From: Nemertoderma westbladi
Lineage: Eukaryota > Animalia > Xenacoelomorpha
Direction of reading: 5' to 3'
Assembly: GCA_032718475.1 (NCBI GenBank)
Contig: JAUCBJ010008381.1
Location: forward strand, 1 to 64,000
DNA length: 64,000 bases
The notes under the pieces are model-generated. The model was not told where the DNA came from and made no database searches. It worked only from the letters and a program-made list of their open reading frames with translations. Made by a program: the position numbers and the translations under genes. This document shows, in pieces, positions 26,239 through 53,400 of this stretch. Each line of letters starts with the position of its first letter. The first letter of the stretch is position 1.

Positions 26239-27526
26239 TGTACGCGCTTTTGAAGACCTTTAGCAGTTTAACCTGCCAAAATTTATATGTCTTTTGGTTT
26301 ATAAATATACTTTAGAAGATGACAAATATTTAATACCAATAAACACAACATTAGCAGAAGCCAGCCTAGTGCGCGTCCATTCACCCGCTGGATATTCCCG
26401 GGAGACTGGATTCTGAGGGCTTAGATTATTATTGCAGTGAAGCTTACTGTATTGTATTATTCGATTGATCATTAATAATTAATTTCTGACTAATATTATT
26501 TACTTTCGGGAAATATTAACAGTTCCTTTAGGACGTGGCGCTCTATCTAAGTAAACAGAGATATGACTTATACTAATCACAACGGTAAGTCGGTAAGGCT
26601 TATGATTCACGTATGAGGCGCATTCTTTAGGAAATGCTTAGTTATCAGCCACAATCATGCACACTACCGGTAACGCACAATACTGCTCACTAATTTGCCG
26701 ACCGTCAATGAATTTTATCATATATAAAGAGAATAGCAACGGACTCATGTAGGGCTTATCAAATAGCATTAAATTCAATACACACCACAATAATATAAGT
26801 CGCAATCGCTATATATATAACCCGCCTCTCTAACCTGTAGTGTATCAAGAAAATTGGGAAATTTGGGTTCTTTATAAATGTTCTCCAAATAATATTCAAT
26901 CCACTGATATAAGATATGACAACAGTAAAAACATTAAGACGGTAGGTTAAGATATGATATGAACAGATATGTACAGCGATATGCACTGATATGGACCGGT
27001 ATGTGATTTGCACCGATAACAGTTATACGCTCTATAATCTTCAGCCTACTAATGTTTCTTCTAAAGTATGAAATGAATTGACTCTAGAGCCGTTGTTCCT
27101 GGCCTAGACAGCAATAACAACAAAGTATCAAGTAAAAACAGTAAGACTGAACACTCTCCTTATGATCGGCCGAAAAGCTACACGTCGACAGGAAAAATCG
27201 CTCTGATTGGCTCAAGCCAAACAAAGAACCATGCGTCCAATGGCTGTTTCCATGTCAGCAACCAGCTGTTAGATGTCGTAATATGAATCATCACGGCTAA
27301 GCTGTGAAAGGTATTTGGTGCATTGTAGGTTTTTTGCCTTACCATGTCCGCCAAAACACGTATATAGCAGAATGACTTTTATGTCCGTTAAAACACCTAT
27401 AACGGTACCTTGCGGGCGAGGGGAATATATATACAGTTAGAGAACCTTTTAGAGTATTCCAGCGCCTGGGGGGGAAACTGGATTGCGAAGCAAAGGGGCC
27501 AGTTATATCCCACAGAAGCTTTTACA
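26239..27526 (-). repeat. 3' LTR of element 1
   Basis: No difference from 37152-38439 found by eye; preceded on the minus strand by short purine-rich TGGGAGCGG (PPT). Confidence 0.97.
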
Positions 27527-27604
27527 CCGCTCCCAGAAAATGGGATTTGAGTCTATAAAATATACAAAATCACAGTTTCTAATATACGTAAATACTCTAA
27601 ACAG

Positions 27605-29053
27605 TTAGTCTTTCTTGCGCGGACGGCGTTTACGCAGTTTTTTAAAGTTAGCCAGAGTCCTTTTCTCTTTGGGGCGAGCCACTTTACAAGGAGGGCTATA
27701 ACTCCGGGGTGAAGGGTGCAATATGATTGCATCAGAGGGTGTAGGATTATGGTCGGTGTATCCGCCAGTCGAAGTACCGGGTTGATTGACATCGACGTCA
27801 GGGGAGAGGGGTCTAACGGCTTTGAGAGCTCGTTTCAAGACAGCCGCTCTTACGGGTCCTTTACGAGTGGTCTGAACGAGAGCCTTGGGTGGACCATAGG
27901 CAGTCAGAAACCTCCGGGGTTTAATGGTTCTTTCCAACTCGCGTTCGAGGGCTCGGTATTCGTAAGGCCGCCGATATACTTCCTGTAACTCGGGGTGTGA
28001 GTTAACAAATAAGCCTCCATAGTCCGGGTCCTGACGGATATAATTGATTAAGCTATAGGAATGAAGGTCGCTAGGATTAACACTCCTGAGAAATTTACGT
28101 ACGAACTTGGTTGAAATACATTCTCCGACGCGCTTCAGTAGTTCGTAACTTGATATGCGTGATTTCTGTTCGACAGAAGCGAATAGATAAGGATGGAACG
28201 CATAAACTCCTTCGTAAGCGCGTCCGGGATAATAGCGATGGCGCGAATCACAATGTAAATCAGCGTTCGCTTCCCAAGCTCTAATGTAACGTAGTGTGAT
28301 CATTTCATCTACGCTTTCCAAATCGTGATTAAACGGGCAATCGAAACTGGCGTGTCCCTTTAGTTGACAATGGTGACATTGAGTCATAAATTGAGGGCAA
28401 ACCGCAAAAATATGCAAATTATTAAATATGCAATACGCGCAATAAATTTCCATCGCCGGTTGTTCGTGGAAATAGGAACAGCGGACGTTTGTGTCCATGG
28501 GTGTAACATGGTCTCTCGATGCGCATAACCGACAACGTTGCCGAGAAACATAGTTGGCATGGCGATAATCGTACGCAGTGAGACACTGTGGACCTTGATA
28601 CCATTCTAGGATGTAATCGTTGTCGCTGTTCCGGGCGCGATAGGCTGAATCTCCTCAGATTCTAGGCATATTGGTTCATCTTCCCAGTCTGTTACGAATA
28701 GAATTTTCGTGATCTATTCTCGGTTTATCGTTCCGACTCCGCTGGGTATGATATTTAAATAGAACCATTTCCCTTTCGGTGTCTACATCGTCCGTATCAT
28801 GTAAATCGATAGGATGGCCGGTAGTTAGGAAGTCCATATACGTACTATTACGATGCGTATAGCGCGCGGTGGATTTTCGATAGTCCAATTCACGCGCAAG
28901 TTGCTCTTGGGACATCAGCGGTTCGATATAACGACCATCGTCCTCCGTAATGGTTGGATCGGCTTCACCGCGTATTAAGCTATCCACAAATGCTTGCAAA
29001 AGTAGAGTATATCGCTCCTTGATACCAAGATCATCTTCTATCAACTCCGTCAT
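27605..29053 (-). CDS. Accessory ORF region of element 1: three CCHC-like zinc knuckles and a basic C-terminus; two in-frame TGA near 28655-28678
   Basis: ORFs 28676-29053 and 27605-28498 are in the same frame. Motifs CRLCASRDH..C, CAYCIFNNLHIFAVC, CHHCQLKGHASFDC; ends KKLRKRRPRKKD. Confidence 0.65.
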
Positions 29054-30677
29054 ATCTGCTATCTGAGTTTGTTAATATCGAAATGAGTTTATGTTTAGGC
29101 GAGCGGACGTCTCTGCCCACCTCTCTTTGCCCCCGGACAGTGGGATTCTCAGCGCCGATGTACCGTTGTCGCGGTGTTTACGCCAACATGTAGCAACATT
29201 ACGACAACGATAACCGGCACAAGTCACTCCACTGTCCGTCCCAAAGGCTTGAATCCACTTTAGGTTCTTTCTATAGGAGAGTTGGGTTACTTTCACAATT
29301 GCGACTAGCTACTGTAAACACACCTTAGCAGTAACATTCACCTACAAACGCACAAATTCCACACAACTGTCACCAATTGTACACATACAGGCCATTTGTC
29401 CGTTAGTCAGTGCCTTCCAGAATGTCACGTTATTACTGTGTATCCTTGGATACTAACAGTGTGCTATATTCTCTATGCTATGCAATGGGACAAGCTTTCT
29501 ATTGTTCTTTTAACTTGCTTCTAATTCTAGCGTGGGTGTTGCTATGGTGACATTATGGAATGCTAGCGGTAGAATTAGGGTAATTCTCATGCATACAGAT
29601 CTGGGATGCTATTTAATAATAATTCTTTAATTGTCAATATCCTCTTTATGCATGATTTTATTAATTTTATCGGCTATTGACTATATGTTGGAGATTCTCG
29701 CACTCTAATGCACTCAATAGGATGAATCTCCGCTCCCATGATCTATTAATTAATGGAATTTTGGGAATGTTATAAATTGTACAAAATGACAATTTATGAA
29801 ATTCATTTAAAATATGAATTTAAATTTATTCCTGTGAATTTTATTATTTGATGTTAAAATTGACACAATTTTTATTCCAGAGCATGTCTGGGGACTGAGG
29901 ATCTTTAATTCTATAAAATTGTCTTTTAAGAGTATCGGTAAGTGCTGCGATATCTTAATTGACTAGAAATTTTAAAGGATCCGAATTTTACAGATGTTAA
30001 TAAATATTAAATTAAGATTTAAGATGGGCACCGATTTATTCCAGAACTTGTCTGGGGACGTTAACCACTGATTCTAGAATTTGTCTTTCAAGTATATCGG
30101 TGGGTGCCGCGATATCTTAATCGACTAGAATTACAGATGGTCAAAAGGTTTAACAGATTTATTTGCGTTTTACGCTACTGTTATAGGGACATCACACTAC
30201 TATATGTATTATTTAATATAAGGTAGAAGAGCAATATCGCACGAAGCAATGTCAGTGTGAAGAGGCAAGTCGTTTCCAAGGTCTACCCAGAGCTTGGTTT
30301 AGCTGAGACACGAGGATCTGAACTTTGCATTCCTAATACTCTGCCTACCAATAATACTTGAACATAGTAGTGGCTTTATTGTACTTTAATAAGTACTGAC
30401 ATGTCATCTTACTATAGTCTCGCATTTATAATATAATACGGACAGTAAGGAAAGAGAAAAATAATTATTTCTTGCCGTCGCACTAAATATATTGTAAGTA
30501 ATTAAATACGTAATAAACACTAATATATTGCACTAATTTACTAAATATTCTAAAATAACATTCTACTAAATAAAATTAAAGAAAACGATTATAATAAAAT
30601 TACATAATAATACATACATAAATATAAAATAAAAACAAATATAAAATGATATAGTCACACGCCCACTCCATATGTTA

Positions 30678-33600
30678 TTACGTTATGGAGTCCCTAGATA
30701 TTTGTCGGATTAGGGAAGTGGTCGTAGGAAGAGTATCTTGCCTTCCATAGTTTCCGGACAGTTTTCGGTCTCTTTCCAGTAAACATAAACGACTAGCTGG
30801 GCGATTGAGTTGTTGTGTTACTTTCTCCGCTCCCTTGGCCTGTCTAATCTCCGCCGGGGTAAGATGAGGAGGCCATTCTTCTTCTTCTTTACTTAAGAAG
30901 TCGGATCCACCTAACCAGCCTGGAGTATCTATCAGTTCTTGAGGAGTTGCTCCTCTGGAAGCGATGTCGGCTGGATTAATCGTCCCAAGGCAATGTCTCC
31001 ATTGATCTACATTGGAGTTAATATCGTCATTATCTGAGGAGTATGGTGTTCCCTCAGTTGGATCGTCCACATCACTGCTCTCCACTTCCCCCTTTACTTG
31101 GTATACCTGTTGTTGAGGTAATCTCTCTTTGAGAGTTCTACGGGAAGGGCCAGTGAAGTACCAACCTACTCTAGTTCTTACCGCATAGGTTTGCAGTGGC
31201 TGCGGTTGAGCAGGCCGTTTCTCCAATGTCTCGAGCGCCTCATGCGCGTTTTGGCCGATGAGTATTTGCACTCCAGGATAATCTGTCTGGAATCGAGGTA
31301 TCTTAAGATGTTGGATGCTCTCATCCTCGTCCCAATTATAAAGGTCTGCTTGGGTAGTAGCGAAGTTCTTTATAGCCACCATTTTTACTGACCTTATGCC
31401 TTGTGTTCCTAACTTATCCTGGGGGGTGGACAACACACCTACATAGTAGTCTGCCGTTAGGGTAGATTTCCAAACCTGCATAATTCCTGACATATTCAAT
31501 TTAGTCCGGAACTTGGGTTGTCCAGCAAAGATATCTTCGGCTAGTTCTTGATCGATGAATGTTCCTGTGCTGCCGGAGTCAAGGAGGGCGTTCACTATGT
31601 AGCTTTTGTTAAGACCGTGAACTCTTACCTGAACTACAGGAAATTCTCTGATTCCTACGTTGGAAGCTGGAGCTTTCCAAGAGGGTTGTTTGGCGAAAGT
31701 AGTCGGGGGAAACTCATCGTTGGTGTCCTTTTCATAAGTAAGTGCTCGATACACTGAGGTATTTATTAGATAACAGGATTCGTTGGCGTCGGAGAATTCG
31801 TCAGTATAGAATCCTTCCATCTCAGACTCTTGATCAGTGTCATTTACATCACTGAATTGGACATGTAGTTCGGGCTCACTTACCTGACTCGGATTGTCTC
31901 GTTCGAACTCACTGTGTAACAAGATGTGATGTTTCGCGCCACACTTTGCACACTTTACGTCGGAGTAACAGGTTCGCCGTTGGTGTCCTGATCTGAGGCA
32001 ATTATAGCATAACCGCTTATTCCACAGGACTGTACGTCTGTCTACAGGGGATTTCTTTAGAAATTCAGCACACGCACTCAAACGGTGGGGCCTGTCGCAC
32101 AGCGCACATTTTGGTTTGATGTTACTCACCTTAACTTGGTTAACGTTCTGCACTCTCGTTCTTTCTTCGGGCTTTCTTCCGTGAATTCTCTTAGGAGACG
32201 TAGGAGGAGTTGTTGTTACCTGTTCTCTCCTGTCACTGGTTCGAGACTTGTATTTACTTACGTCTTTATAGGTCTTGTTGTCATAGTAAGATTTTGCTGT
32301 GTCTTTCCCGCTGTCCTCTTCTTGAGAAGCTTGGCTTTTGCCGTCGTCAGTATAACACACTGGTATTATCCTTCTCCTAGAAACGGGTTTCTCACTTACC
32401 TTATTTTCCGATGTTTTCTCTCTGGACTGCCTTATGAGTTGTAATTTTACTTCACTATCTAAGAAGGACATGAGATCAGCCATGGTAGGGCTTCGTCGTT
32501 GTTGTTCATTCATGTACAACACTTTCTTGTCCCAGCGTGTACATACTCCACCCTTTGGTAAAGTAGAGACTACTGCTCCAATAACCATGGAACTCTGATA
32601 TTCATGAGACTTACCCAACCAGTCCAATTGTCTACAGATCTCCTGAATCTCATCGGAAAACTCTATAATCCCGCTACTAAGGAAGTTTCGGGGGGCTACT
32701 AATTTTGCATACAAATACTTAGCTATGTTATCCTTGTTACCATACCTGATGTTTAATGTATCCCAAACTTGTCTTAATCCATCTGGATGTCCAATAAACT
32801 TTAACGCCATTAACTTGGGAGGTCCTTCCAAGCACTTGATGAGGAATCTAAGTTTCTCTCCGTTAGATAGTACAGAGTTCTGTATGCTATCTTTGTAATA
32901 TTCGTTGAAAGGTAACCATTTAATCTCATCTCCATTGAATTTGACGATCTCTCCCACTTTGACCGCTTGGCGGGCTTCTGTTCTAGCCATAGTTCTAGTT
33001 TCTTGGGCCATCGTGTTATTTAATATCGAATTATCGGTATATAAAGTTCTCGGATCATTATCAGGTCTATAGGGAATATCATTAATAACAGGTCTATAAT
33101 CACCCTTAATAGGGTTTGCTATAGGAGTTTCAACTTCACTAGCAGTATAGATGCGTGTAGGCTCCACACCTTGCGCATGTATTACTTCAGACCTAACAGG
33201 TTGACACAATGTTACAGGGGGTATTGGTATGCCCTTTTGTATATTGACTAATTTGTCGCGTTCTAGCGCGATACTTTGCTGCACTTCTTGCAACTCTGCT
33301 CTACCTTCCCTCACTGTTCCCTTAAGTTGGTGGACAGTCTCCTGCATCTGTCCTAGCAGGAGATTCATCCCCCGCCGTCCCTCTTCCACCCACTCAACCG
33401 CCGAAGCGGGAGTCGCCAACATAGTAGCGGGCTGACGCGGGACGACGGGAGACAAATTTTTGATTTCTCTCTCTGCTATCTGGACAGGGATATTCTCTTG
33501 GACTGTTCCACCGGGTACAGGCAGTGTAGTACTATGCAAAGGGAATTTAGAGTTAAGCTCTGGAAGTACAGGGGTCTCTAACACAGAAGTGACTTTGGGA

Positions 33601-34886
33601 ACGACAGGCCTAATTATTTCAGGCTCATCAACTATTGTAGGGAGTCTTGTGACCTGAATAATTTGTTCTGTGGGTTCTATACTACTCAAGTCTGTGCTAG
33701 CTAGCTGTCTTCTAACAGCTGGGGGCAAATCAGGCAATTTGTGACGGTGAGATGTTTTTCTACGCCTGCTTAGACGAGATCTATTTCCTCCGCCTTCAGG
33801 ATCGGTGGTCTCGCCTTCCTCCGAGGATGTGTATCCCTGGCGCTTGGGAGTAGATTTTCTCATCATCTGCATTTGATTAGCAGTAAACTGTTTATTTATA
33901 CTGTCTTGCGTCTCTTGCAGATTTTCCAACTCCAGTTGGATAGTCTCCTCAGACGCTCTCCGTTCTGCTTCTGCCACTGTTGCTTTTCTTTCGGCTTCCG
34001 CCGCTTTTCTTTCTGCTTCTGCTTCTGCCGCTTTTGCTTTTCTTTCGGCTTCTGCTTCTGCCGCTTTTGCTTTTCTTTCGGCTTCTGCTTCTTTTCTTTC
34101 TGCTTCTGCTTCCGCCGCCGCTGCTGCTGCTACCTTCCTTTTCTCTATCCGTTCTTTCTTTACTTGATCTTCTTGGACTCTAACGAGGCGGAGTTTTTCA
34201 TCACATTCAGCTTGGTTTGCAGCTAACATTTCGGCATCGATTGAGTCCAACACAAGCTTGGTTCCTTCACTATTAGGGGAAAGTCCAGACAGCCGTCTCC
34301 TCAACTCTTCGTCTCCTAGGAATCGCTGATAGTCGGACAAATAAATGTCGATAGCGTCTCTAGTTCGCGGCTTCTCTGCTGATGTTAATTCGCTTTCCAC
34401 TTCGCTTTCCACCTCGCTTTCCACTTCGCTTTCCACCTCACTTTCCACTTCGCTTTCCACCTCACTTTCCACTTGAGAAGAAGTGGCGTCGGTTGATTCT
34501 TCATAGGTTGGCCGCTCATCATAAACCGTATCCGCCATCTTCGCTCCGCGTTCGGGCGTCCGCTCAACAGTATCCGAACTACTGGAGCTATCGGGCCGCT
34601 GAGAACTAGGTTCTTGGCTAGGAGGTTGCTGCTGTTTTATAGCTTCTTCTTGATCCCGCTTGACTTGGGCCCGAGTGCCTATGGCAGACCAACGGCGCTT
34701 CACTAACTTCGCAAATTGCGAAATCTTTTCTACCAACCTAGGTTCTGACACAACCACTGCAGGGGTTGCCCTTCTTACAGTATGAGGGGTTTCAGACCTC
34801 GGTCTGGGATTCTCTACACTTTGATCTGAGAAACAGGCTGTTGTTTCTAGGAGACTATCTGACAGAGTTTGCCTTGTGTCAGCCAT
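30678..34886 (-). CDS. BEL/Pao Gag-protease polyprotein (1402 aa), fused in frame to a short RNase H end fragment
   Basis: KFNGDEIKWLPF gag core; three knuckles CALCDRPHRLSAC, CYNCLRSGHQRRTC, CAKCGAKHHILLH; ALLDSGS protease; then jumps to QWRHCLGTINPADIASRG. Confidence 0.95.
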   Translation of the reverse strand: MADTRQTLSDSLLETTACFSDQSVENPRPRSETPHTVRRATPAVVVSEPRLVEKISQFAKLVKRRWSAIGTRAQVKRDQEEAIKQQQPPSQEPSSQRPDSSSSSDTVERTPERGAKMADTVYDERPTYEESTDATSSQVESEVESEVESEVESEVESEVESEVESELTSAEKPRTRDAIDIYLSDYQRFLGDEELRRRLSGLSPNSEGTKLVLDSIDAEMLAANQAECDEKLRLVRVQEDQVKKERIEKRKVAAAAAAEAEAERKEAEAERKAKAAEAEAERKAKAAEAEAERKAAEAERKATVAEAERRASEETIQLELENLQETQDSINKQFTANQMQMMRKSTPKRQGYTSSEEGETTDPEGGGNRSRLSRRRKTSHRHKLPDLPPAVRRQLASTDLSSIEPTEQIIQVTRLPTIVDEPEIIRPVVPKVTSVLETPVLPELNSKFPLHSTTLPVPGGTVQENIPVQIAEREIKNLSPVVPRQPATMLATPASAVEWVEEGRRGMNLLLGQMQETVHQLKGTVREGRAELQEVQQSIALERDKLVNIQKGIPIPPVTLCQPVRSEVIHAQGVEPTRIYTASEVETPIANPIKGDYRPVINDIPYRPDNDPRTLYTDNSILNNTMAQETRTMARTEARQAVKVGEIVKFNGDEIKWLPFNEYYKDSIQNSVLSNGEKLRFLIKCLEGPPKLMALKFIGHPDGLRQVWDTLNIRYGNKDNIAKYLYAKLVAPRNFLSSGIIEFSDEIQEICRQLDWLGKSHEYQSSMVIGAVVSTLPKGGVCTRWDKKVLYMNEQQRRSPTMADLMSFLDSEVKLQLIRQSREKTSENKVSEKPVSRRRIIPVCYTDDGKSQASQEEDSGKDTAKSYYDNKTYKDVSKYKSRTSDRREQVTTTPPTSPKRIHGRKPEERTRVQNVNQVKVSNIKPKCALCDRPHRLSACAEFLKKSPVDRRTVLWNKRLCYNCLRSGHQRRTCYSDVKCAKCGAKHHILLHSEFERDNPSQVSEPELHVQFSDVNDTDQESEMEGFYTDEFSDANESCYLINTSVYRALTYEKDTNDEFPPTTFAKQPSWKAPASNVGIREFPVVQVRVHGLNKSYIVNALLDSGSTGTFIDQELAEDIFAGQPKFRTKLNMSGIMQVWKSTLTADYYVGVLSTPQDKLGTQGIRSVKMVAIKNFATTQADLYNWDEDESIQHLKIPRFQTDYPGVQILIGQNAHEALETLEKRPAQPQPLQTYAVRTRVGWYFTGPSRRTLKERLPQQQVYQVKGEVESSDVDDPTEGTPYSSDNDDINSNVDQWRHCLGTINPADIASRGATPQELIDTPGWLGGSDFLSKEEEEWPPHLTPAEIRQAKGAEKVTQQLNRPASRLCLLERDRKLSGNYGRQDTLPTTTSLIRQISRDSIT

Positions 34887-36240
34887 GTTTGATTGTACAG
34901 TCGAATGCCTACTGCTATATTACAGTTAAAGCAAGTCTAGTAATTCAGTATCACTGTTAGCCTAATAATTAATTACCGATGCTGCTACTCAGTGTAGCGT
35001 GATATATATATAAAATATTAGAATACCGGTATGCTTATAATATATATATAAGTATTATTACAGACTAGATTTGTCACAGAGTACCGGTATATAATTTTAG
35101 CACAAATATATATAAATATATAATAGGCCTATCGTGAATACCGGTATACAGCTGACACTTATAGTATATATAAGTATAATTATTACTAGAATTAATTACA
35201 GAATACCGGTATGATTTCAGCTCAAATTTATAGAAATAAATATAATAAGCCTATGGTAAATACCGGTATGTCAATTATTTTAGAATAAATGAATTTCTGA
35301 ATATTTTAGGGTTACTTGGTTACTTTAACTTACTTTATTACCGTTATTTAAGCAGCAGTCCAACTGATATTGAGACCTAGTTGTTGTATGGCAGGCCTAC
35401 TATTTATAAATCGTTTGAGTTGATTTATAATATTTATATACCCGTTTAAAAGGGTTTTGTCAATATTTGAAATAAATGTTATTATTTCTGGGGGAGTCAC
35501 TACACAGAAGCTGTGCGCTCTCAGTGAAGTGCTACCTATGGGACACTAAAACAGATAATTCTAATTTACCTAAGTTACTTAATACTACAAATTACTTACG
35601 ATACGGGTGAGATTAAATCTCTAGTTAAACACAACAAAAATATTACGTACGAATTTTTTAGGGTAATTTTACAGGAAGTCTACAAACCAGCCTAACAAAG
35701 GGTTAGAATTCTGGTTATTACAATGGACAGGGTACTACGGTATTTGAAAATAATAAGTAGTAGTAAATACACTGCGTTGTCCAGATAGGGAAATACAACC
35801 GCCTGACGACCTATAACCGTATCGCTATAGGTACTACGTTATGTATCACGGATTGTTCCTACCTAGAAGTTAATTACCGCGGACTACCAGATCCAGCGTG
35901 CCTATTAACCACTTTACAACACAAATATACTGCCTACACACTAATTACTTCGGAAAGCACTGTACACTAAACCCTAAATTAGGTACAAGTACTGGTACAA
36001 CAAATAATCAGTAGTTAAATATACTTGAACAGTTAAAAGAACCACGGCATCTGCTGGAGTGACCGAAGCACAAAGTCACCAGTCTTTACCTACGCCAAGC
36101 AGCCCGTGTAGTACCGGGGTTAATTTAACTATAACGGTATGTGTAACAAACACAATTACTGTAGGAATAAACTTGGGGACATGAATGTTGCGAATAATCG
36201 CATAAACTCTGAATAATAAATATTACGCTACCCGTACAGA

Positions 36241-36800
36241 ATACTCAAACAAATACAAACCAAACGCTGGCAGACTACCACCAAGCCTAAATAAACTACT
36301 GTATGTGCAGATTCCAAAACGGTTAGTTAGTATGCGTTCTAACACGGTAGTACGACTTATTCTTTAAGAGGGGATTGACCTTACAGTTATGACTGCCCCA
36401 ACTTACTAACTGGCACTTTATCAGACAAACTCTACACAAGCAGCAATCTCTTCAGACCTAATAATAGCTAGACAACAATCCAGCCTACAAAATATCTGAG
36501 TAATAACTATTACGGTACCTGAACAGACCACACAAACAAACACAAGCCAAAACGCTGGCAGAATACTGTCAAGCCTAAATAAACTACAGTATGTGCAGAT
36601 TCCAAAATTGTTAGTTAGTATGCGTTCTAACACGGTAGTACGACTTATTCTTTTAAGAGGGGATTGACCTTACAGCGATGGCTGCCCCAACTTACTAACT
36701 GGCACTCTATCAGACAAACTCTACACACGCCGTAATCTCTCCAAACCCAACAACAATCCGACAACAGTCCGGCCTACAATTATCTGAACAATCTGAGCAG
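36241..36800. repeat. Two tandem ~290 bp copies in the 5' leader of element 1
   Basis: CAAACCAAACGCTGGCAGACTAC...CCTACAA occurs twice; single copy in element 2 (~56900-57170). Confidence 0.8.
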
Positions 36801-37140
36801 ACTTACACGTCTTCAGCTCAATATTAACTTACTAGGAAATAAAACTGACAGAAATAGACCTAAGTAAAATCCCAATAAAAACCAGGCGTCCCCGATTTAA
36901 TATCGAGACCTACCGGTATACAATAATCAAAATCGAATAATACTAATGTACTTATACTGGAAGTACCGGTTAGGACAGTTGGGCCTACGGACCTACAGAA
37001 GTACCGGTTCTGGCAGTTGGACCTACGGACCTACAGCAGTACCGGTTCTGGCAGTTGGGCCTACTGACCTACAGAAGTACCGGTTCAGGTTTACCGGTTG
37101 ACCGGTACTTTCAACTTTATTGCTTACTACAATAAAGTCA

Positions 37141-37151
37141 ATAACTGTTAT
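37141..37151 (-). promoter_or_regulatory. Non-canonical primer-binding site of element 1 (ATAACAGTTAT on the element strand)
   Basis: Abuts the 5' LTR, has no TGG, and is the exact complement of LTR positions 37929-37939. Confidence 0.7.
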
Positions 37152-38439
37152 TGTACGCGCTTTTGAAGACCTTTAGCAGTTTAACCTGCCAAAATTTATA
37201 TGTCTTTTGGTTTATAAATATACTTTAGAAGATGACAAATATTTAATACCAATAAACACAACATTAGCAGAAGCCAGCCTAGTGCGCGTCCATTCACCCG
37301 CTGGATATTCCCGGGAGACTGGATTCTGAGGGCTTAGATTATTATTGCAGTGAAGCTTACTGTATTGTATTATTCGATTGATCATTAATAATTAATTTCT
37401 GACTAATATTATTTACTTTCGGGAAATATTAACAGTTCCTTTAGGACGTGGCGCTCTATCTAAGTAAACAGAGATATGACTTATACTAATCACAACGGTA
37501 AGTCGGTAAGGCTTATGATTCACGTATGAGGCGCATTCTTTAGGAAATGCTTAGTTATCAGCCACAATCATGCACACTACCGGTAACGCACAATACTGCT
37601 CACTAATTTGCCGACCGTCAATGAATTTTATCATATATAAAGAGAATAGCAACGGACTCATGTAGGGCTTATCAAATAGCATTAAATTCAATACACACCA
37701 CAATAATATAAGTCGCAATCGCTATATATATAACCCGCCTCTCTAACCTGTAGTGTATCAAGAAAATTGGGAAATTTGGGTTCTTTATAAATGTTCTCCA
37801 AATAATATTCAATCCACTGATATAAGATATGACAACAGTAAAAACATTAAGACGGTAGGTTAAGATATGATATGAACAGATATGTACAGCGATATGCACT
37901 GATATGGACCGGTATGTGATTTGCACCGATAACAGTTATACGCTCTATAATCTTCAGCCTACTAATGTTTCTTCTAAAGTATGAAATGAATTGACTCTAG
38001 AGCCGTTGTTCCTGGCCTAGACAGCAATAACAACAAAGTATCAAGTAAAAACAGTAAGACTGAACACTCTCCTTATGATCGGCCGAAAAGCTACACGTCG
38101 ACAGGAAAAATCGCTCTGATTGGCTCAAGCCAAACAAAGAACCATGCGTCCAATGGCTGTTTCCATGTCAGCAACCAGCTGTTAGATGTCGTAATATGAA
38201 TCATCACGGCTAAGCTGTGAAAGGTATTTGGTGCATTGTAGGTTTTTTGCCTTACCATGTCCGCCAAAACACGTATATAGCAGAATGACTTTTATGTCCG
38301 TTAAAACACCTATAACGGTACCTTGCGGGCGAGGGGAATATATATACAGTTAGAGAACCTTTTAGAGTATTCCAGCGCCTGGGGGGGAAACTGGATTGCG
38401 AAGCAAAGGGGCCAGTTATATCCCACAGAAGCTTTTACA
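37152..38439 (-). repeat. 5' LTR of element 1
   Basis: TG...CA, 1288 bp; CCAAT boxes near 38118-38155. Confidence 0.97.
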
Positions 38440-38500
38440 GCAGTGTATGGTTGGAGTTATGTCTGGGTTGCTATAGCAATACTACTGGCTGCCTATATTA

Positions 38501-41733: not shown

Positions 41734-42820
41734 TAAACATACTATTAGGTAGCTATTCATAAATAAACAAAATGTTCTAGAATATGGTATTTTTATTTAA
41801 TAGAATAAAATAGCCTCATGCAGATGCAAAACCATGCAACATTTGAACGCTCATATCTCAGTTATTTCCCAACCAAATTCAGATTATGTTACATATTTGG
41901 AATCCTTACATGGCCAGCTTTCCATCAGTACCAACCAACAAATCGCTATAAGGTTGAACAATAACTGGAGTGTAACTGGTGAAATATCACCGGAGACACC
42001 TTTTTCAAACGCTTGTAGCTAAACAATGAAAGCGAAATTAAAAATTCTGGCTCACCCAGCAAGGAGGAGGGAGGTGAAACTATCTCTGTTTCTAATTTCA
42101 TACAATCTTATTAAAATTTGTAGAAAAATTTGGGGGGGGGGGGTAATGTACCTGAATAACGACACTATATTCCAGGACATGGTGTATATATATATGTGAT
42201 ACAAAAAATATCTAATTACACCATGACCCGTAATATAGTGTCATTTTCTGATGACATGGACCCCCCCCCCCCCCAAATTTTTCTACAAATCTTTATCATA
42301 TTGTTTGAAATTTGAAACACAATTAGTTCAACTCACCGTGGTTGTTACCATGAAGCCGGAATTTTCGATTTCGCCTTCAAATTTTATTTATAAGCGTTTT
42401 AAAAAAGTGTCTTTTGCGAAATCGCACCCTCTGTATCATTGCCATTCTTCACTTTAGTCGTAATTTTTCACATCAATAGAAAGCTTGCGTTCAAAGGATT
42501 CCAAATATGTAGCAATATCTGAATTTCGTTGAGAAACAGCTGAGAAATAGGCATTCAAAGATTGCAAGAATTATTGTTCACTGCAGGCCATTTATTCTAT
42601 TTAATAAATACACAATATTCTAGAACGAGTTATTTATTTTATGAGTTGGTAGGCAACAGCGGTATGCCTATACAATATCTATGTTCGCGCTTTTAGACCT
42701 TTAGCAGTTTAACCTGCCAAATTTAGGTGTCTTCTAGGTTATAAATCGACTTTAGCCTATAACAAGTATTTGATACACATAAAGTTACATTAGCCGAAGC
42801 CAGCCTATGCGCGATCATTC

Positions 42821-45217
42821 TACTACTACTACTACTACTACTAGGATCGGCATGCTGCATTGCAGCTGCATTTTTAAGAATGCTGTGCCGGCTTGTCAAC
42901 AAAATTGCACCGCCACAACTCCCTATCACCCATGACATTTGCTAGATCATCCGCATCTTTAAGGCCAGTGTCCTTTAAGATGCGTCTCAAGAAAGTCATG
43001 GGCTGTCCACCATGCTTATTCACTCCATGAGGCTGCCAAAGTACAAGATTATGCACTGGCTGGTCCTCACGGCGAAAGCAATGTCCTGCAAAGCGGAGGC
43101 GATTTTGTTCTAGTGTCAAGCTTGGGGGAACCAATGAGACACCTCCAATGTTATATAGTGTCTGGTTGGAGATGTGTGCATTGTACTTGACACAATGAAC
43201 CCGGCGTAGCATTCTTGTGAATGTGCCATCCAGAGATTTGGTGTCCTCAGCAGTTAGAGCCCAGCATGGACTCCCGTAGAGGAGTACTGGAACTACTGCT
43301 GCTCTAAATAATCGGACCTTAAGTTTCCGATTAATTCTCGGTGACTTCCAAATCCTGGAAAGCCTATTCAAGGCTGCCCATGCCTTTCCCTTACGTATTC
43401 GAAGGTCCTCACCTGACTTCCGGATCCATGATCCCAGGTAACAGAAGTCGTCCACATGCTCAAGCATACCATCCTTTGAGCTTATGCTCATCCTATCAGA
43501 GACTTGCTGAGGACTTTCAAAGTTAACTGTCAGAATTTTGGTCTTTCTGGAGTTAATAAAAAGACCAACACTAGAAGCAGCATGTTCTAATGAGCTGAGG
43601 AGCCGTTGGGCTCCCTCTAATGATTCTGAGAGTACTCCTAAGTCATCAGCAAAGTCTAGATCAGTTAGGTACTTGGCAGGATTTCCTCGACTTCTGGAGC
43701 CAGTAGGTGGAGTTATCATCACCCCATCATCATTATAATGATCTAAGGACATGCGTAGAACATAGTCAACCACAATAATGAACAAGAATGGTGCAAGTGT
43801 GTCTCCTTGGAGGACGCCCCATAACACTTCAAATGGTTCTGTGTCACCATCAACAGTAGACACAAATGTTGTCGAACCATCGTATACTGATCTGATTGCT
43901 GCAATAATTTCATCAGGAATCCCATATAATGAAAGTATGGTGAACATACGTGAGCGAGAGACTGAATCAAAGGCCTTGAAGAAGTCAACAAAGATAACAG
44001 CCAGATGCCTGTCTTTCTTTTTTGATAACTCTTCAATTATCCTTCTAAGTGCCAAAATGGGCTCCATGGTCCCACGACCTTTACGGAACCCATTCTGATT
44101 TCCACGGAGCAGTCTCTCAATGGGATCCCTGATGCGATTTAATAGAATCCTATTGTATAGCTTTGCAGCAATCGAGATCAATGAGATTCCCCGAAAAGAA
44201 CCATAGAGTGTTAGGTTGCCCTTCTTGGGAACTGGCACCAACTTATTTGTTTTCATTTCTTGTGGGACTCTTGTTGTTCGGTACATGTCTACTATGATGG
44301 GATAGATGAGCTTTAAACACTCAGGTATTTTAAAGACCTCAGGGGGAACACCATCTACTCCACTGGCACGATTGGTCTTAATGCTCTTTGCAGCAGCCTT
44401 CACTTCTGCAAAGGAGATATCGCCAATGGGAATATCTGGGAGTACAGACTCAGACACTTTTACTTCTATAAAGTTATCAGGCAATACCCTGTCATTATTG
44501 AGGAGCTTTTCAAAGTGGGCTTTCCAACCATTGAGGCGATCGGCTGGTGATTCAGCCTTAACCTTGGTGGTTGGTTGGCTTTTCCGCCCAGTAAGCAGAT
44601 TGATCGATTTCCATGCCTGGGATGATTGCCTGCTGTCGTCAGCATCATTGATGGCATCAACCTGTTGGTTTATTAGCTCCTGTAGATTAGCAGAGTACTG
44701 CCTGTTCAGGGACCTAGAAGCAGCCTTAACTGCATTCTTGGCCGCTGTAGTCTGTTTGAGTCGGGACTCTTTCTGCGCCTTATGAAGGTCATTTCGGCAC
44801 TTCTGAATTTTGTTGTCAGTCCAGGGGGCCCTTTTCTTGTTTCGAGGGTATACAGGAACTGTTTCTGCAGCTGCTAACTTAACTGCTTCTGTAAAGGCAG
44901 TATAGCCCTCACAGTGATCTGCCGCCTCAGAGGCAAGAGCCTCATACCTGTTGCTCAGCTGTAGTGTGAAGCTGGATCTCACACTTGGCTGTTGCAACAG
45001 AGAGGACCAGTCATGCCGCGGCAAGGCAGATTTCGTTGTTCTGCTAGCACGCAGACTAAGTCTTACCTTGGCCACAATAAGGCGGTGATCACTGGAGAAG
45101 GGTCGAAGTGTAAATGCATTACAGTCTTGTATAGAGCTCCTGTATTTCCTACGAAACAGAATATGGTCTATCTGGGACTTGTGACCACTGGGTCCACTAT
45201 GACTGACCTGTCCTGAC
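42821..45217 (-). mobile_element. 5'-truncated RTE-clade LINE inserted in the 3' LTR of element 2
   Basis: 11-bp TSD CGCGATCATTC (42810-42820 and 45218-45228); (TAG)n tail; ~30 nt 3' UTR; empty site present in the 5' LTR. Confidence 0.96.
42874..45200 (-). CDS. RTE ORF: end of APE endonuclease plus reverse transcriptase (5' incomplete)
   Basis: The frame is open upstream of the called start (SQIDHILF...SSDHRLIVAK); QNGFR, DFFKAFDSV, GVLQGDTLAP, LDFADD, YLGS. Confidence 0.95.
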
Positions 45218-46336
45218 CGCGATCATTCACCCACGGTTAAGGGAGACTGGATTCGGATGCTCTGGCCTTATTGCGGTGTAGGCCTACTGTACTATTCGAT
45301 TGATCGTTAATATATAATCTCTGACAAATATTATTCACTTTCGGGAAATATTAACAGTTCCTTTAGGACGTGGCGCTCTAAGTATGTAAACAGAGTTATG
45401 ACTTACACTAAACACAACGGGATGGCTAATGATTTTCGTATAAAGCGCATTCTTTAGGAAATGCTTTGTTACCTGTCACACTCATGCACACTACCTCACA
45501 CTGCTGCATACTGATCTGGCGACCTTCACTAAATTTGATCATATATAAGGAGAACAGCAACTGACACATGTAGGGCCTATGAAATAGCATTCAATTCACT
45601 CCAAAACCACTATAATGTAAGTCGCAATTGCTATATGTAACCGGTCTCTCTAACCTTCAGTATATCAAGAAGATTGGGGTTTTACGATTATTTATCGATA
45701 TTCTCCCAATATAACAACATTCCATCAACTGATAACAATTAATAACCGACAGTAAATAGCAGTAAAATAATGCGGTGAAAAGTAAGGTGAGTCTGGTATG
45801 CCAGGATAACAGTTATACGTTTCTATAATCAAAGCCATTCTAATGTTTGGCTAAAGTCTGAAACACAGAATAATTCCAAAGCCGATGTTCTGGGCTCAGG
45901 AAAAGGGAAAACAAAGACCACAATGCATTGCGCGATTTCCCGGAGGCTTCTGTGCAAATAAAATGAAAATCGCTCTGATTGGTCGAGTGAGTGAGCCTGA
46001 ACAAAGAAAGCCAAAAGCTCCACGTCGACATATCAGCTGGTAGATGTCCTCATCTGAACTACACTGTATTAAGAGTATTTTGGCGTATTGCGGCATAAAA
46101 TGGCTTGTTATGTCCGCTAAAGTACACATACAGAAAAATGGCTTTTTATGTCCACTAAAACACTTACACAGTAAGAAAACGGCTTTTTATGTCCGCTAAA
46201 ACACCTACAGAGTACTTTGCGGGGAAAATGACTAGTTATATCCGCAAAAGCCTTTACACCGCTCCTAGAAAATGGGATTTAATTCTATAAAATATAAAAA
46301 ATCACAGTTTCTAAAATATAAAAATACTCTAAACAG

Positions 46337-47453
46337 TTAGTCTTTCTTGCGCGGACGGCGTTTACGCAGTTTTTTGAGGCTAGCAAGAGTCCTTTTCTCT
46401 TTGGGGCGAGCCACTTTACTAGGAGGGCTATAACTCCTGGGTGAAGGGTGCAATACAATTGCATCGGAAGGTTTGGGATTACGGTCGGTGTATCCGCCGG
46501 TCGAGGTACCCGTTGATCGGTATTAACCTCAGTGGAACGAGGTCGAATAACCTTGAGAGCGCGTTTTAAGACAGCAGCTCTTACTGGTCCCTGACGGATC
46601 GTTTGCATGAGAGCGGTAGGTGGACCGTGTGTAGTGAGAAATTTCCGCGGTTTGATGATTCTTTCCAACTCGCGTTCTCAGGCTCTATCGGGATCGATAT
46701 GCTTCTCCTCGAACTGATTTTCCTCCGCTTGTCGTTGAAAGCATTCGTCCAAAACTCTTGCAGAAAGTAGAGTCGTCCAAGTTCGATATCTTCTTAGAGA
46801 TTCTGGATTTCCTGATTGAACTGAGATAAAGCTAATTCGTTTACCGCTTGGACTTGCTGCTGCAATTTACGTTTCTCTAAACAATTGTAGGTTCCTTTTC
46901 CAATCTTTTGATGAATAGTGTCCAACGCGTTTAGTACAACTCTCTCCTCCACCTCGGTGACAGGTTATATTGGGTTAAACCGGGACGATGATACGGTTGA
47001 ATGGCGATATTAGATGTCCGCGTCCCAATCCGACTAGGTAAGATGGGCGAATATTTAGGGAGCCCACAACCGGAGTGCCACCGACTAATTGTTCGGGTAA
47101 CACTAGATCTTTGAACAGTGAGTACAGTTCGGGAGGGTCTGTGATACTATTAGGATCAAGAGTCTGAGGTCTCACTAGGGAGTGAGGAGGTCTGACCGAG
47201 TATTCCAGAACTCTGATCATAGGTTTATTTAAGGATCGTTTGAGTTGAGCGAGCATAGGTGATACATCGAACAAGTTTCGCTCGAAACTCCCGTAAATAT
47301 AGCGAGTAAAACTGTGTTTAGAGCAACGTCTCCGCGGATGTTTATGACTTCCCGTTTGTTGGTTGGATCTTGGGCATTTATCGCAATAATACCAAAGATG
47401 CACGTCTTGTAGGGGAAACGCTGGTGATCTTTCTTCAGTTTTACAATGTGCAA
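46337..47453 (-). pseudogene. Accessory ORF region of element 2 (disrupted)
   Basis: 46337-46686 is homologous to the C-terminal ~115 aa of the element 1 accessory ORF (ERELERIIKPRKFLT...KKLRKRRPRKKD, one frameshift). The upstream part shows no visible similarity to element 1. Confidence 0.65.
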
Positions 47454-47464
47454 TTGTGCATGTT

Positions 47465-50400
47465 TTACAATTTACAATGTTCTACCGATCGCACCAAACC
47501 ATGATCCGAGATATGAGTCTCGATGATACGACCTGTCTGCCACCGCTTACGTGGAAGATCTGAATCCACAATAAGGACCATGTCTCCGGCGCTGACGTTT
47601 TCTTGCTGCGCAAACCACTTAGTTCGAAGTTGTAGTGTAGGCAGATAATGTTTTTCGAAATGGTCAGCGAAACGACGGGAAAACAACTGCATAAGTTGCC
47701 AAGTTTGCCGGCAGTATTCGTCTCCATCCGTGATTTCCGATCGTGGGAGCATGGCTACAGGTTTCTTCAGTAGGAAGTGCGCGGGTGTTAGCGCTTCCAG
47801 GGAATCGGGACTCGATGAGACTGGCATAAGCGGTCTCTCGTTGAGATAGGTGGCGATTTCCTCCATTAACGTTCGCAAAAGTTTGTCGGTGAGATACGCG
47901 CGGTACGGCACTATAAAGTGAAATGCGGTCTTCACGCTTCTGATTAATCTCTCCCAACTTCCTCCCCACCACGGGGCGTCGGCGGCGTTGAAGGTCCAGC
48001 TAGACGCTGTTACCCTTAGCTGACGTCCACCTGTCTTTGGTTCCAATCTTTGACGTAAGCCTTGATTTCATTGTTGGCACCAATGAAGTTCGTTCCCTTA
48101 TCAGATATCATCGTGTTACTAGTTCCAAAGCGAGCGATCTGTTGGCGTAAGCTCAATATGAAGCTATTGGTAGATAAATCGTTCACCATATCGAGATGGA
48201 TAGCTCTACAAGTCAGACAGACAAAGATGACACACCATCTCTTAACTATAGTCCTAGCACGATATACTTCAATAGGGCCAAATAAATCCACACCGGTATT
48301 AGTAAAGGGTGGTTCATAGAAGCTTACTCGTTCCCTAGGTAATTCTGCCTCTCGCTGTGTTAAAGGCCTACTGAACGCTTTCCTACAGGGTATACAGTTC
48401 CTAAGAACTTGGTTCAGAGCTCTACGGGGTTTATGAAAATAATAGCGAGTTCGAATTTCGCTAAGAACTCGTTCTCTACCAGCATGATAAAGCTTACTGT
48501 GAACATCTACAATCATCTTGATTTGTATTTCAAGATTTCTAATGAGTATGGGAAACTTAGTGTCAAAGGATAATGGAGCATTAGTTAGTCTTCCTCCAAC
48601 GCGTATTAACCCATCTATCATTGTGCTAGAGAAACGATCCCTTAAGCGCATCTGTGGATTTCTCAACAACAGGAAATACTTATCGGAATCTTCATAGCAT
48701 TGCAGGAGTCTCAGTATCTGCTTATTGGTTTCTTCATGCTCCTGGTAACTGATTTTCTCCTTCAGAAATCTGTCCGATGTCTTGTATTTGGGAAGATCTC
48801 TAACAACATGGACCTGCGCAGATGTCAGTGGAGCGGTATCACTAGTGGTCTTCGTCCTGGAGTAGTGATGATGAAAACATCGCTTTAAATATGTAACGGC
48901 CTTACAGAGCCGATTCCAGGAACTATAGTGACGTATCGCTCTCTGCAGGAGAGGTGAGAGTCCTTGCGAGACGTCTGGTGTTCCAGATTTCCAATCTCTC
49001 TCTCTGATTTCCACAACAGACTTATTTGTGGCTGGGGGTTTCGGATCCAAAGCGTCGTCTCGGGAAGTGCATAGTACCGACAGATCTATCACGGGTTTAA
49101 ATAACTTCGATTTACTCGCCCGGGTTTTAGGTTTGACTTTCTCCGCTCCCTTGGCTTGTCTAATCTCCGCCGTAGTAAGATGAGGAGGCCATTCATCCTC
49201 TTCTTTGCTTAGGAAGTCGGGTCCACCTAACCAGTCTGGAGTATCTATCAGTTCCTGTGGAGTTGCTCCCCTGGAGGCGATATCGGCTGGATTAATCGTC
49301 CCGGGGCAATGTCTCCATTGATCTATCTTCGTCTGACTAAGTATAATGGCTAATCTGTTGGTAACGAAGACGCTGAACTGACAGACTTCATTGGTTATAT
49401 ACTCCAACACGAGTAAAGCATCGGTCCAATAGACAGTTTTCTCCAGTGGATAGTCGATCTGTTCTGTTACATTCCGGCTGATGGCTGTAGCGTATAGAGC
49501 CGCTTTTAACTCCGCTCGAGGAACTTTCAACTTGTTGTTTATCAATGCCTTAGAGGTAACCAAGGCGACCTTGATTCCATCCGGAGTTTCAACTCTCAGG
49601 TAGGCTACTATACCTATTCCCATATCGCTGGCGTCTCCAAACACATGGAGTTGATAGGAATACGCAGGGAGAACATGACCAAAATATGAACGGGAGATTA
49701 GAAAGTTCTCGATGGATGGTAGAGAATCCTCCCATTTCATCCACTTCTTTAATAGTTCTCCCTTAAGTGGATCGTCCCATGAGTGGTTTTCAAGCCACAT
49801 TTGTTGTACTAAACTCCGAGCAATCAATATAACTGGGCTAATAAATCCCAATGGATCGAAATAAGTGCTCAGGATACTTAGACAAATTCGTTTAGTCCGA
49901 ACTGGATTATCTCGCTGTTTTAGCTGGAAAAACAGGATATCTCTCTCCGTGTCCCATTTCAAACCAAGTGTATTGGTTTCTGGAAGATCGTCCTTGATTA
50001 GGTCTAGATCTTTAACTCCTCGGTCTTCTACCGGGATCGATTCCAGAAACTCACGGGAGTTGCTGGTGAATTTAGTTAATCGAAATCCACCTCTTTTCAA
50101 GCACTCTACCATTCCTTTGGCGACATCAATGGCTTCTTCCACCGATGGGAGGGACTTTAAATTGTCGTCCATGTATATATCCCGTTTGATGTTGTCGATA
50201 ACCTCTTTGGAGAAGGCGTCCCGGTTGTCATCAGCAGTGGTGCGCACTACTGAGCAGGCGTTTGAAGGGCTCGAGATGATCCCAAAAGCCTGGATGGTCA
50301 TCCAGTACTCCACCGGTTTCTGGTTGAGGTCTCCTTCAGGCCACCACAGAAATCGTAGGCTGTCACGATCTCTATCCAGCGCCTTAACTTGTAAGAACAT

Positions 50401-53400
50401 GCCTTCTATATCGGAGGTGAAAGCGATTGAATATTGTCGTAATCTTAAGAGTATTCCCAACAAGGATTGGAGTAAGTTGGGTCCTGTCAACAACTCGGAG
50501 TTAAGGGATTGGCCCATGTAGAGGGCGGAGCCGTCAAATACTACCCGGACTTCGTTGGGTTTACCGGGTTTGGGAACGTAATGATGTGTTAAATAGTACG
50601 TTCTCTCAGTTATGGGTGTTCCTTCCGGTACTCGCTCCGCATATCCCTTGTCAATGAATTTCTTCAGCTGGGTCTTGTACATCTCCTTAGCTGAAGCATT
50701 TGCCGTAAGGCGTCGATGCAGTTGCGCAATTCTCTTCTCCGCCAAGGGTCGGTTGTTTATAATATTGGGTTCTCGCCGTCGGAAAGGCAGACCAATCTCA
50801 TATCTACCTTGATCTTTAAGAAAACGTGTAGTTGTTTCCTGTATCTGCTTGGCTCTTTCTTCTTCTACCGATAGGGCCTTATCGTAGGAATTGGGCTCTA
50901 CAGCCTCCTGAGTAAAGAATCGTATGGCGTGTTCATCACGAGTCTTCGCGTTGTAGCGATCTATCACTTCATTCAGTTCGTCGTTGTAATCGACTTGTTC
51001 CGCTGGATGAATGCGGTGAAATAGGTTCACTTGGTTTTGCCAAGTTTCATTTTCCGTAAGGAGGTCGATGGTATTCTCCTCGTCGAATAGTTGGTGGATA
51101 TCGTCATTATCTGAGGAGTATGGTGTTCCCTCCGGTGGGTCATCTCCCTCACTGCTCTCCTCTTCCCATTCACTCACCTGGTAGACTCGTTCTTTGGGTA
51201 GCCTTTCCATAAGAGTTCTACGGGAAGGTCCAGTAAAGTACCAACCTACTCTATTTCTTCCCGCATAGGTTTGTAGTGGTTGCGGTTGAGCAGGCCGTTT
51301 CTCCAATGTCTCAAGCGCCTCATGCGCATTTTGGCCGATGAGTATTTGCACTCCAGGGTAGTCTGTGTTGAATCTAGGTATCTCATGCTGTTTGGTGAAG
51401 TCGTCCTCATCCCAGTTATAAGGTTCCACTTGGCTGGTAGCGAAGTTCTTTATCGCCACCATTTTTACTGACCTTATACTGTGTTCTCCTAGTTCATCCT
51501 GGGGGTGGACAACGCGCCTACATAATAGTCTGTAGTTACTGTAGATTTCCAAACCTGCATAATTCCTGACATGTTCAACTTAGTTCGGAACTTGGGTTGT
51601 CCAGCAAAGATATCTTCGGCTAGTTCTTTGTCGATGAATGTTCCTGTGCTGCCGGAGTCAAGGAGGGCATTCACTATATAACTCTTTACTGACCCGTGGA
51701 CTCTCAACTGCACTACGGGAAATTCTCGGATTCCTACGTTGGAAGTTGGTGCTTTCCAAGATGGTTGTCGGTCAGGAGTAGTTAGGGGGAACTCACTATC
51801 GGTTTCCTTTTCATACGTAAGTGCTCGATACACTGCGGTATTTATTAGGTAACAAGATTCGTTTTCGTCGGAGAATTCATCCGTATAGAATCCTTCCATC
51901 TCAGAACTTTGGCCAGTGTCGTTCACATCACTGAATTGGACATGTAGTTCGGGCTCACTTACCTGACTCGGGCTGTTTCTTTCGAATTCAGTGTGCAACA
52001 AGATATGATGTTTCGCGCCGCACTTAGCACACCTTGCGTCGGAGTACCAGGTTCGCCGTTGGTGTCCTTGTCTGAGGCAATTATAACGCAACCGCTTATT
52101 CCACATGACTTCACATCTATCTATTAGGGATTTCCTCAGGAATTCATCACACGCACTTAAACGGTGGGGCCCGTCGCACAGCACACATTTTGGTTTGATG
52201 TTACTTACCTTACTTTGGGTAACGTTGTGCACACTCGTTCTTTCCTCGGGCTTTCTTCCATGAATTATCTTAGGAGATGTAGGAGGAGTTTTTCTTACCT
52301 GTTCTCTCCTGTCATTGGTTCGAGACTTAAATTTACTTACGTCTTTAGGCACTTTGTTGACATAGTAAGCTCTTTCAGTGTCTTTCCCGCTGTCCTCCTC
52401 TTGAGAGGCCTGGCTTTCGCCGTCGTCTGTATAACACACTGGTGTTACCTTTCTCCTAGAAACGGGTTTCTCACTTACCTTATTTTCCGGTGTCTTCTCT
52501 CTGGACTGCTTTAGGAGCTGTACTTTTACCTCTCCATCTAAGAATGACATGAGATCAGCCATGGTAGGGTCTCGTCGTTGTTGTTCCATCATATATAACA
52601 CTTTCTTATCCCAGCGTGTACCTACTCCACCCTTTGGTAAAGTAGATGCTACGGCTCCAATAACCATAGAACTCTGATATTCATGAGACTTACCTAGCCA
52701 ATCTAATTGTCTACAGATCTCCTGAATCTCATCGGAAAACTCTATAATCCCGCTGCTAATGAACTTTCGGGGCGCTACCAATTTCGCATACAAATACCTA
52801 GCTATGTTATTCCTATTACCATACCTGATGTTTAGTGTATTCCAAACTTGTCTTAATCCATCTGGATGTCCAATAAACTTTAACGCCATTAACTTGGGAG
52901 ATCCTTCCAAGCACTCGATGAGGAATCTAAGTTTCTCTCCGTTAGATAGCACAGAGTTCTGTATGTTATCTTTATAATATTCATTAAAAGGTAACCATTT
53001 CATCTCATCTCCATTGAACTTGACGATCTCTCCCACCTTTACCGCTTGACGGGCTTCGGTTCTAGCCATTTGACGCATAAAACTTTCTTGGGCCATCGTG
53101 TTATTTAATATCGAGTTATCGGTATATAAATTTCTCGGATTATGATCAGGTCTATATGGAATATCATTGTCAACAGGTTTATAATTACCCTTAATAGGGT
53201 TTACTATAGGAGTTTCTACTTCACTAGCAGTATAGATGCGTGTAGGCTCCACACCTTGCGCATGAAATACTTCAGACCTAACAGGTTGACACATTGTTAC
53301 AGGGGGTGGTGGTATACCCTTTTGTATATTTACTAATTTATCGCGTTCTAACGCAATATTCTGCTGCACTTCTTGCAACTCTAACCTACTTTCCCTTACT

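Follow-up and report, generated by a model that had tools for sequence, protein, structure and literature searches.

LTR retrotransposons that prime reverse transcription on their own RNA have been reported in the Tf1/sushi group and in Tcn1, all of them Ty3/gypsy chromoviruses (PMC4600332; bioRxiv 2022.12.06.519325; PMC7175516; accessible sections of each). In Tf1, the primer consists of the 5'-terminal 11 nt of the transcript, and RNase H cuts after base 11 (PMC7175516, accessible sections). A further case lies outside Ty3/gypsy: for the Ty1/copia TAR lineage (Houba, Osr-1), Neumann et al. (2019, PMC6317226, accessible text) predicted self-priming where a complement of at least 10 nt begins 0-5 nt from the 5' LTR end.

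BEL/Pao elements, by contrast with these groups, are described as tRNA-primed, largely by assumption. The ICTV account of the Belpaoviridae gives an 18-nt site complementary to host tRNA-Arg or tRNA-Gly (PMC8742986). No mention of a primer site was found in the accessible parts of three BEL/Pao papers (PMC554778, PMC3118150, PMC6238403), and those of PMC6934838, PMC13524379, PMC8220671, PMC4558846, PMC3601003 and PMC2774666 yielded nothing on self-priming in BEL elements. The literature searched, which lies mostly outside subscription journals and repeat-database reports, contains no report of BEL/Pao self-priming or of a primer made by splicing.

Here we describe two BEL/Pao retrotransposons that, judging from their sequences, probably prime reverse transcription on their own RNA, with an internal stretch of the LTR as the primer (we put this at roughly 0.7). 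Self-priming as such, summed over this internal version, a 5'-terminal one and one involving a cryptic intron, is likely, and we hold it with strong confidence short of certainty, because complements of the element's own LTR recur across the relatives of these elements.

Results

Two BEL/Pao elements in one window

The window, that is, the whole stretch of 64,000 nt analysed here, contains two BEL/Pao elements, E1 and E2, whose parts are collected in Table 1. They are 78-85% identical and belong to one family, so they do not count as two independent cases. E1 has lost RT and most of the RNase H and integrase, and its gag-protease ORF begins 2265 nt downstream of the 5' LTR. Target duplications of 5 bp flank both E1 (26234-26238 and 38440-38444) and E2 (42677-42681 and 58618-58622). 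The 3' LTR of E2 differs from its 5' LTR at 20 positions in 1041 nt, and its copy of the motif discussed below (45806-45817) is untouched.

Table 1. Features of the two BEL/Pao elements (window positions)
Feature	Position	Strand	Remarks
E1, BEL/Pao LTR retrotransposon	26239..38439	-	internally deleted
E1 5' LTR	37152..38439	-	1288 nt, TG..CA
E1 CCAAT box	38119..38123	-	in a 13-nt run common to E2
E1 candidate self-primer	37929..37939	-	contiguous, intron-less form
E1 predicted U5 helix	37155..37289	-	37289-37284 with 37160-37155; closes just before the site
E1 primer-binding-site position	37141..37151	-	complement of the LTR motif, without TGG
E1 predicted hairpin	37114..37138	-	directly after the site; retained in E2 with altered pairs
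E1 gag-protease ORF	30678..34886	-	DUF1759; crosses the pol deletion near 31010
E1 extra 3' ORF	27605..28498	-	297 aa; CX2CX4HX4C-type zinc-knuckle motifs
E1 polypurine tract	27527..27534	-	before the 3' LTR; the same in E2 before 46258
E1 3' LTR	26239..27526	-	identical to the 5' LTR; motif copy 27016-27026
E2, BEL/Pao element	42682..58617	-	gag-pol split over several frames
E2 5' LTR	57449..58617	-	1169 nt
E2 candidate self-primer	58165..58176	-	12 nt
E2 primer-binding-site position	57437..57448	-	
E2 pol frame	48016..51552	-	RT with YMDD, Peptidase_A17 (RNase H region), integrase zinc domain
E2 DUF5641	47465-48046	-	downstream of the pol frame
E2 3' LTR, first part	45218..46258	-	last part 42682-42820, past a LINE insertion

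The BEL/Pao identity proposed in the initial annotation is borne out by Pfam, which places DUF1759, Peptidase_A17, the Integrase_H2C2 zinc domain and DUF5641 in these elements. As in the Belpaoviridae, DUF1759 (Gag), protease, RT, Peptidase_A17, integrase and DUF5641 follow one another in BEL order (Gag-PR-RT-RH-IN), and the TG..CA LTRs, the polypurine tract and the short, 5-bp target duplication are likewise those of BEL/Pao. PF05380 was present in all 120 homologs among the matches listed, in which the nearest proteins are BEL polyproteins about 40% identical, the named ones coming from echinoderms, cnidarians, molluscs, a tunicate and fishes; marine BEL/Pao relatives also show about 40% identity to the window element over RT-RNase H. 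The elements nevertheless differ from the Belpaoviridae as described: (i) the 18-nt site for a host tRNA 3' end is missing, since, as the initial annotation had noted, no TGG follows either 5' LTR; (ii) the LTRs are at or above the stated upper size; (iii) the leader spans 2 kb; and (iv) there is an extra 3' ORF with zinc knuckles. The missing tRNA site leaves the placement intact because this rests on Pol. Membership of the Tf1/sushi group was ruled out, as it needs a Ty3/gypsy chromovirus Pol and the window Pol is BEL-type.

No LTR look-alikes were found in the other genomes scanned. Neither LTR matched anything in Rfam close to the gathering score, and thus no known ribozyme or tRNA-like part is recognized in them; ARAGORN detected no tRNA within the window or the 91 relative loci introduced below.

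The sequence after the 5' LTR is complementary to the LTR itself

In E1, ATAACAGTTAT (37151-37141) adjoins the 5' LTR and its complement lies within both LTRs, at 37939-37929 and 27026-27016. In E2, 12 nt are complementary (57448-57437 with 58176-58165 and 45817-45806). All these positions, first given in the initial annotation, hold. Both elements thus carry, right after the 5' LTR, the complement to the LTR of at least 10 nt that is typical of Tf1, and the motif stands 788 nt (E1) or 728 nt (E2) upstream of the LTR end. When the LTRs were Markov-shuffled, an equally long complement at offset 0 arose in 33/20000 (E1) and 5/20000 (E2) shuffles, and at offsets 0-6 in 90/20000 and 38/20000, that is, a chance of 0.2-0.5%. 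The motif is inside the longest run (15 nt) that is identical between E1 and E2 in the 5' ~630 nt of the LTR; identity around this run falls to 61% upstream and 51% just downstream, so the surrounding sequence has diverged as had been claimed. The 11 core pairs are invariant between E1 and E2, and the sole change is the gain of a twelfth pair in E2. Covariation between site and motif, proposed as a check on the pairing, is therefore absent within the window family, in which no two-sided change occurs, and is found only across distant relatives (see below).

The motif is rich in A/U and almost palindromic, and TATAACT is also present near the LTR start of both elements. The motif could thus be a DNA-level element, either a TATA-like box or a protein-binding site, repeated after the LTR and devoid of any RNA role; the failure of single-sequence folds to form the helix would agree with this. 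We regard it as hardly credible: all six copies have a complementary and not an identical base at the centre, the matches in the relatives are mostly non-palindromic and arise only after splicing, which a DNA site could not do, and the elements would be left without any primer site.

Most relatives carry a complement to their own LTR, often across a predicted splice junction

Relatives were retrieved by RT-RNase H alignment as the best 80 of at least 482 confirmed metagenome-contig loci plus 11 genome-contig loci, and these 91 loci were grouped into 70 families at 85% nucleotide identity. The 5' LTR end could be named in 42 of the 70, the other 28 being unscored because their 5' end was missing or unplaceable. 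For 15 families (tier A) the LTR end was fixed by the repeat itself, with L016, L022 and L032/L039 trimmed to the terminal dinucleotide; in the remaining 27 (tier B) the LTR end or junction was chosen with the pairing in view, and tier B is therefore not an independent test. Complements of at least 10 nt, contiguous or joined by GT..AG, were scored, at offsets 0-4 in tier A.

In a first scan, limited to complements without a break, most were 4-8 nt long, and they often followed immediately on a pyrimidine tract and AG. In the full LTRs, the remainder of the complement sits just before an upstream GT donor. Together, tier A, E1 and E2 show a 10-15-nt complement to their own LTR in 16 of 17 cases, 11 of them only after predicted splicing and five contiguously, and the sole miss in tier A, L066, has a TGG-type site. 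Tier B comprises 13 spliced, six contiguous and eight negative families. The contiguous family L025 retains only the part after the acceptor, its donor being off the contig; three of the negatives are spliced matches outside the donor, acceptor or anchor filters (L064/L068, L058/L060 and L029, the L068 copy with a mismatch), four have truncated LTRs (L006, L018, L030 and L031), and L090 is an unexplained miss. Overall, 24 of the 42 families have a complement only across a predicted GT..AG junction, and only two have a TGG in the 8 nt next to the LTR. The arrangement that the initial annotation had presented as a one-off lineage is thus the rule among the relatives retrieved. The L066 (56-80)/L077 family, whose TGG-type site lies five bases after an LTR without a complement, offers a natural control.

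Several controls bear on these matches. Pairs of non-cognate site and LTR reached at least 10 nt in 66/1584 cases (4.2%; pairs sharing a 7-mer excluded), and in a positional control on 14 elements only 3/672 downstream windows attained the observed length. The junction donors read GTRAGT in 17/24 families, as against 27/233 nearby background candidates, a feature independent of the pairing. Predicted introns measure 71-1022 nt, and the junction falls within the match, leaving 3-9 and 3-8 nt on its two sides. None of the 24 spliced junctions was present as DNA among the relative loci. The duplex begins with purine-T in 29/33 families (background 12%), and likewise in the window. Among these 33 automated positive families there are 28 different 9-nt cores, each fitting its own LTR, six families sharing one core; the close kin L083 and L085 differ by a three-base change on both sides of the pairing, affecting the last exon bases ahead of the donor as well as the site, across the junction.

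These cores also bear on another explanation, in which the pairing is real but serves regulation, making translation, export or packaging conditional on splicing or folding, while a host RNA, for instance a tRNA half, binds here or nearby as the primer. The core common to six families resembles a tRNA T-loop, and in several relatives the site is only ~20-40 nt from the gag start. Half-tRNA primers do exist in Ty1/copia elements (PMC6317226, accessible text). However, 28 different cores that track their own LTRs are a poor fit to a conserved host RNA, a position 0-6 nt from the LTR end with a fixed purine-T start suits a primer junction, and in the window the gag start is ~2 kb away and no alternative TGG site is available. 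We consider this explanation quite unlikely.

In the window itself, an intron that would create the primer was sought under standard rules, and the best joins gave only 4 and 6 nt. If any GT and any AG are allowed, the GT in the motif can be joined to an AG|GTTA located 35 nt from the LTR end; this join, at aligned positions in both elements, restores a complement of 10 nt in E1 and 11 nt in E2 and does away with the long loop, with a geometry like that of the relatives. Such a cryptic long intron is very unlikely: its donor, GTTATC, is far from the consensus, whereas 20/24 junction-bearing relatives have GTRAG-type donors; it disappears under standard filters; and the AG|GTTA belongs to a conserved hairpin, which accounts for its conservation. 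One sequencing run, with contigs of uncertain kind, which we do not count as evidence, contained many diverged copies of the family; none of the nine joints listed for it was GT..AG, and the bin that covers the 5' LTR motif had no depth.

Quick, unrooted trees were built from 39 rows, with the negatives omitted except those reclassified. The window element forms a long branch beside L062, which is spliced, and L066, which is of the TGG type, and this position near L066 means that the evidence from the relatives applies to the window by analogy and not through a proven common origin. The contiguous state requires seven changes, at least five of them on well-supported branches, and clusters no more than shuffled labels do (97/500). 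This pattern fits repeated intron loss without proving the direction of change. The window pair has the intron-less form, which recurs across the tree.

No relative of the window elements was found among viral contigs, by protein or by junction pattern. Eleven contigs of prokaryote MAGs (L081-L091) carry animal-type BEL retrotransposons, most likely through host contamination.

Transcription probably begins upstream of the motif

Following the Tf1 model, the initial annotation placed the motif at the very 5' end of the transcript. Upstream CCAAT boxes are indeed present, 184 nt (E1) and 165 nt (E2) from the motif, E1 has another in reverse orientation at 215 nt, and the E1 box listed in Table 1 is likely a promoter element. 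The usual NF-Y/CCAAT spacing, however, would put the start upstream of the motif, these boxes being far away for a start at the motif, and neither element has a TATA-like box ~30 nt before it. Furthermore, in the split forms the motif straddles the splice junction, so an exon must precede it; in four of seven complete LTRs, TATA-like boxes put an exon of ~90-110 nt before the donor. A Tf1-like start, with the motif as the first 11-12 nt of the RNA, is thus unlikely in the window, even though the offset of 0 and the length of 11-12 nt are those of Tf1, the motif opens with pyrimidine|A, a possible initiator, and in intron-less relatives, L084 for example, an A/T-rich box precedes the motif by ~30-40 nt. 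Self-priming remains the best reading of what had been noticed, with the primer moved from the 5' end to the interior of the transcript.

Folding predictions

Folded singly, the window RNAs give the primer helix a probability of 0.00 (E1) and 0.01-0.05 (E2), and imposing it costs 9.5 and 0.4 kcal/mol, respectively; in E1 the motif has a competing local pairing. In a consensus fold of both sequences, the primer helix is the outermost and closes the whole domain, although the invariant pairs of this E1/E2 fold prove nothing about the helix. The same fold, which rests on two sequences only, predicts a U5 helix and a hairpin after the site; the U5 helix shows one compensatory change between E1 and E2 and encloses a conserved hairpin (37194-37171). 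A second helix, joining sequence upstream of the motif with sequence after the site, competes with a better-supported local hairpin and is not claimed for the window. Among the leaders of the relatives, the helix reached a mean probability above 0.7 in 4/7 when spliced and 0/7 when unspliced, so that 3/7 spliced leaders fail. Inspection by eye of the sequence after the 5' LTR in L026, L013, L083, L085, L038 and L084 suggests that the main match is often followed by a small bulge and another 3-6 bases that could pair with exon 1.

Discussion

To judge from the accessible texts, the window elements are like Tf1/Tf2/Tj1, Tf1/sushi and Tcn1 in that they have no tRNA site and that the ~11 nt following the 5' LTR match, as a complement, their own LTR transcript. 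Helices such as those that flank the central duplex in that group are predicted here from the two window sequences. They differ from this group, in the sections available, as follows: (i) they belong to another superfamily; (ii) their primer is predicted to be internal; (iii) the pairing would close a loop of 730-790 nt; and (iv) the predicted primer of their relatives extends over a splice junction, a feature not described in the Tf1-group texts. The window elements also follow the rule stated for the TAR lineage. This lineage is, however, one of plant Ty1/copia elements with contiguous complements only, as far as its accessible description goes, and its rule would miss the split form. What we propose is a variant of a known self-priming mechanism; the splice-assembled form, should RNA data bear it out, would be a new kind of mechanism.

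How might an internal primer operate? Transcription would start about 100 nt before the motif, which would thus lie inside the 5' LTR transcript and would loop back to pair with the 11-12 bases that follow the LTR. In the split relatives only the spliced 5' end could pair with the site. By analogy with Tf1, a cut at the 3' end of the motif, probably by the element's own RNase H, would generate the primer, with A-pyrimidine as its 3' end. The minus-strand DNA, covering only what lies downstream of the motif, would transfer to that part of the 3' LTR copy, so that everything upstream of the motif, intron included, would be copied from the 3' LTR. If cap-proximal splicing removed only the 5' intron, the intron would persist and only the 5' end would prime. 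An unspliced 3' copy would hand the intron on in each cycle, and a spliced 3' copy would give rise to an intron-less lineage. The window elements could be such a lineage or have an independent origin, and their folded loop of 730-790 nt would be unusually long.

As the complement appears in so many relatives only once the predicted intron is removed, host splicing would build the primer. We favour the broader view, more guardedly, that a large marine branch of BEL/Pao dropped tRNA priming in favour of a primer built by the host spliceosome, and that it includes intron-less lineages, among them the giant-LTR elements of the window with their pairing over nearly 800 nt. If all this is true, self-priming would reach a third LTR superfamily, with a primer taken from inside the transcript and not from its 5' end. 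In the split form, replication of the retrotransposon would be linked directly to splicing, a kind of control that the literature searched does not describe for any retroelement. It would also explain the absence of primer-site annotations in such elements and supply a simple rule for finding them. An LTR intron that survives reverse transcription poses a puzzle, for which intron-less members like those of the window provide a natural comparison.

Additional features of the window

The leaders between LTR and gag, ~2 kb long (34886-37151 in E1, 55525-57448 in E2), contain tandem duplications of 289-, 122- and 38-nt units, and a 13-nt segment of the E1 leader, 209 nt in, pairs with LTR positions ~37379-37367. 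A 44-nt run identical in the E1 and E2 LTRs (37415-37458, minus strand) contains an 8-nt partial copy of the motif complement and has no match in Rfam. E1 has two extra ORFs past the integrase position (27605-29071, minus strand), mostly lost from E2. The 297-aa one has no Pfam match and no close relative among 1.8 billion representatives, two weak matches (E 3e-4) being all that was returned; that this zinc-knuckle-type protein acts as an RNA chaperone for the long-range pairing is speculation.

A third, distant BEL element lies at 11364-15035 in two oppositely oriented pieces, protease-RT on the plus strand and RNase H-integrase on the minus strand, and a rearranged segmental duplication of ~6 kb (3153-9831 / 18666-25376) is 89-97% identical. 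The LINE inserted in the E2 3' LTR (42821-45217, minus strand) is 5'-truncated, with an RVT_1 domain in a 733-aa ORF, a (TAG)n tail and an 11-nt target duplication. E2 itself is inserted in the centre of a fold-back element whose ~460-nt inverted arms (42197-42656 / 58625-59088) are 93.5% identical, and older copies of these arms are found at 40633-41060 and 41752-42245.
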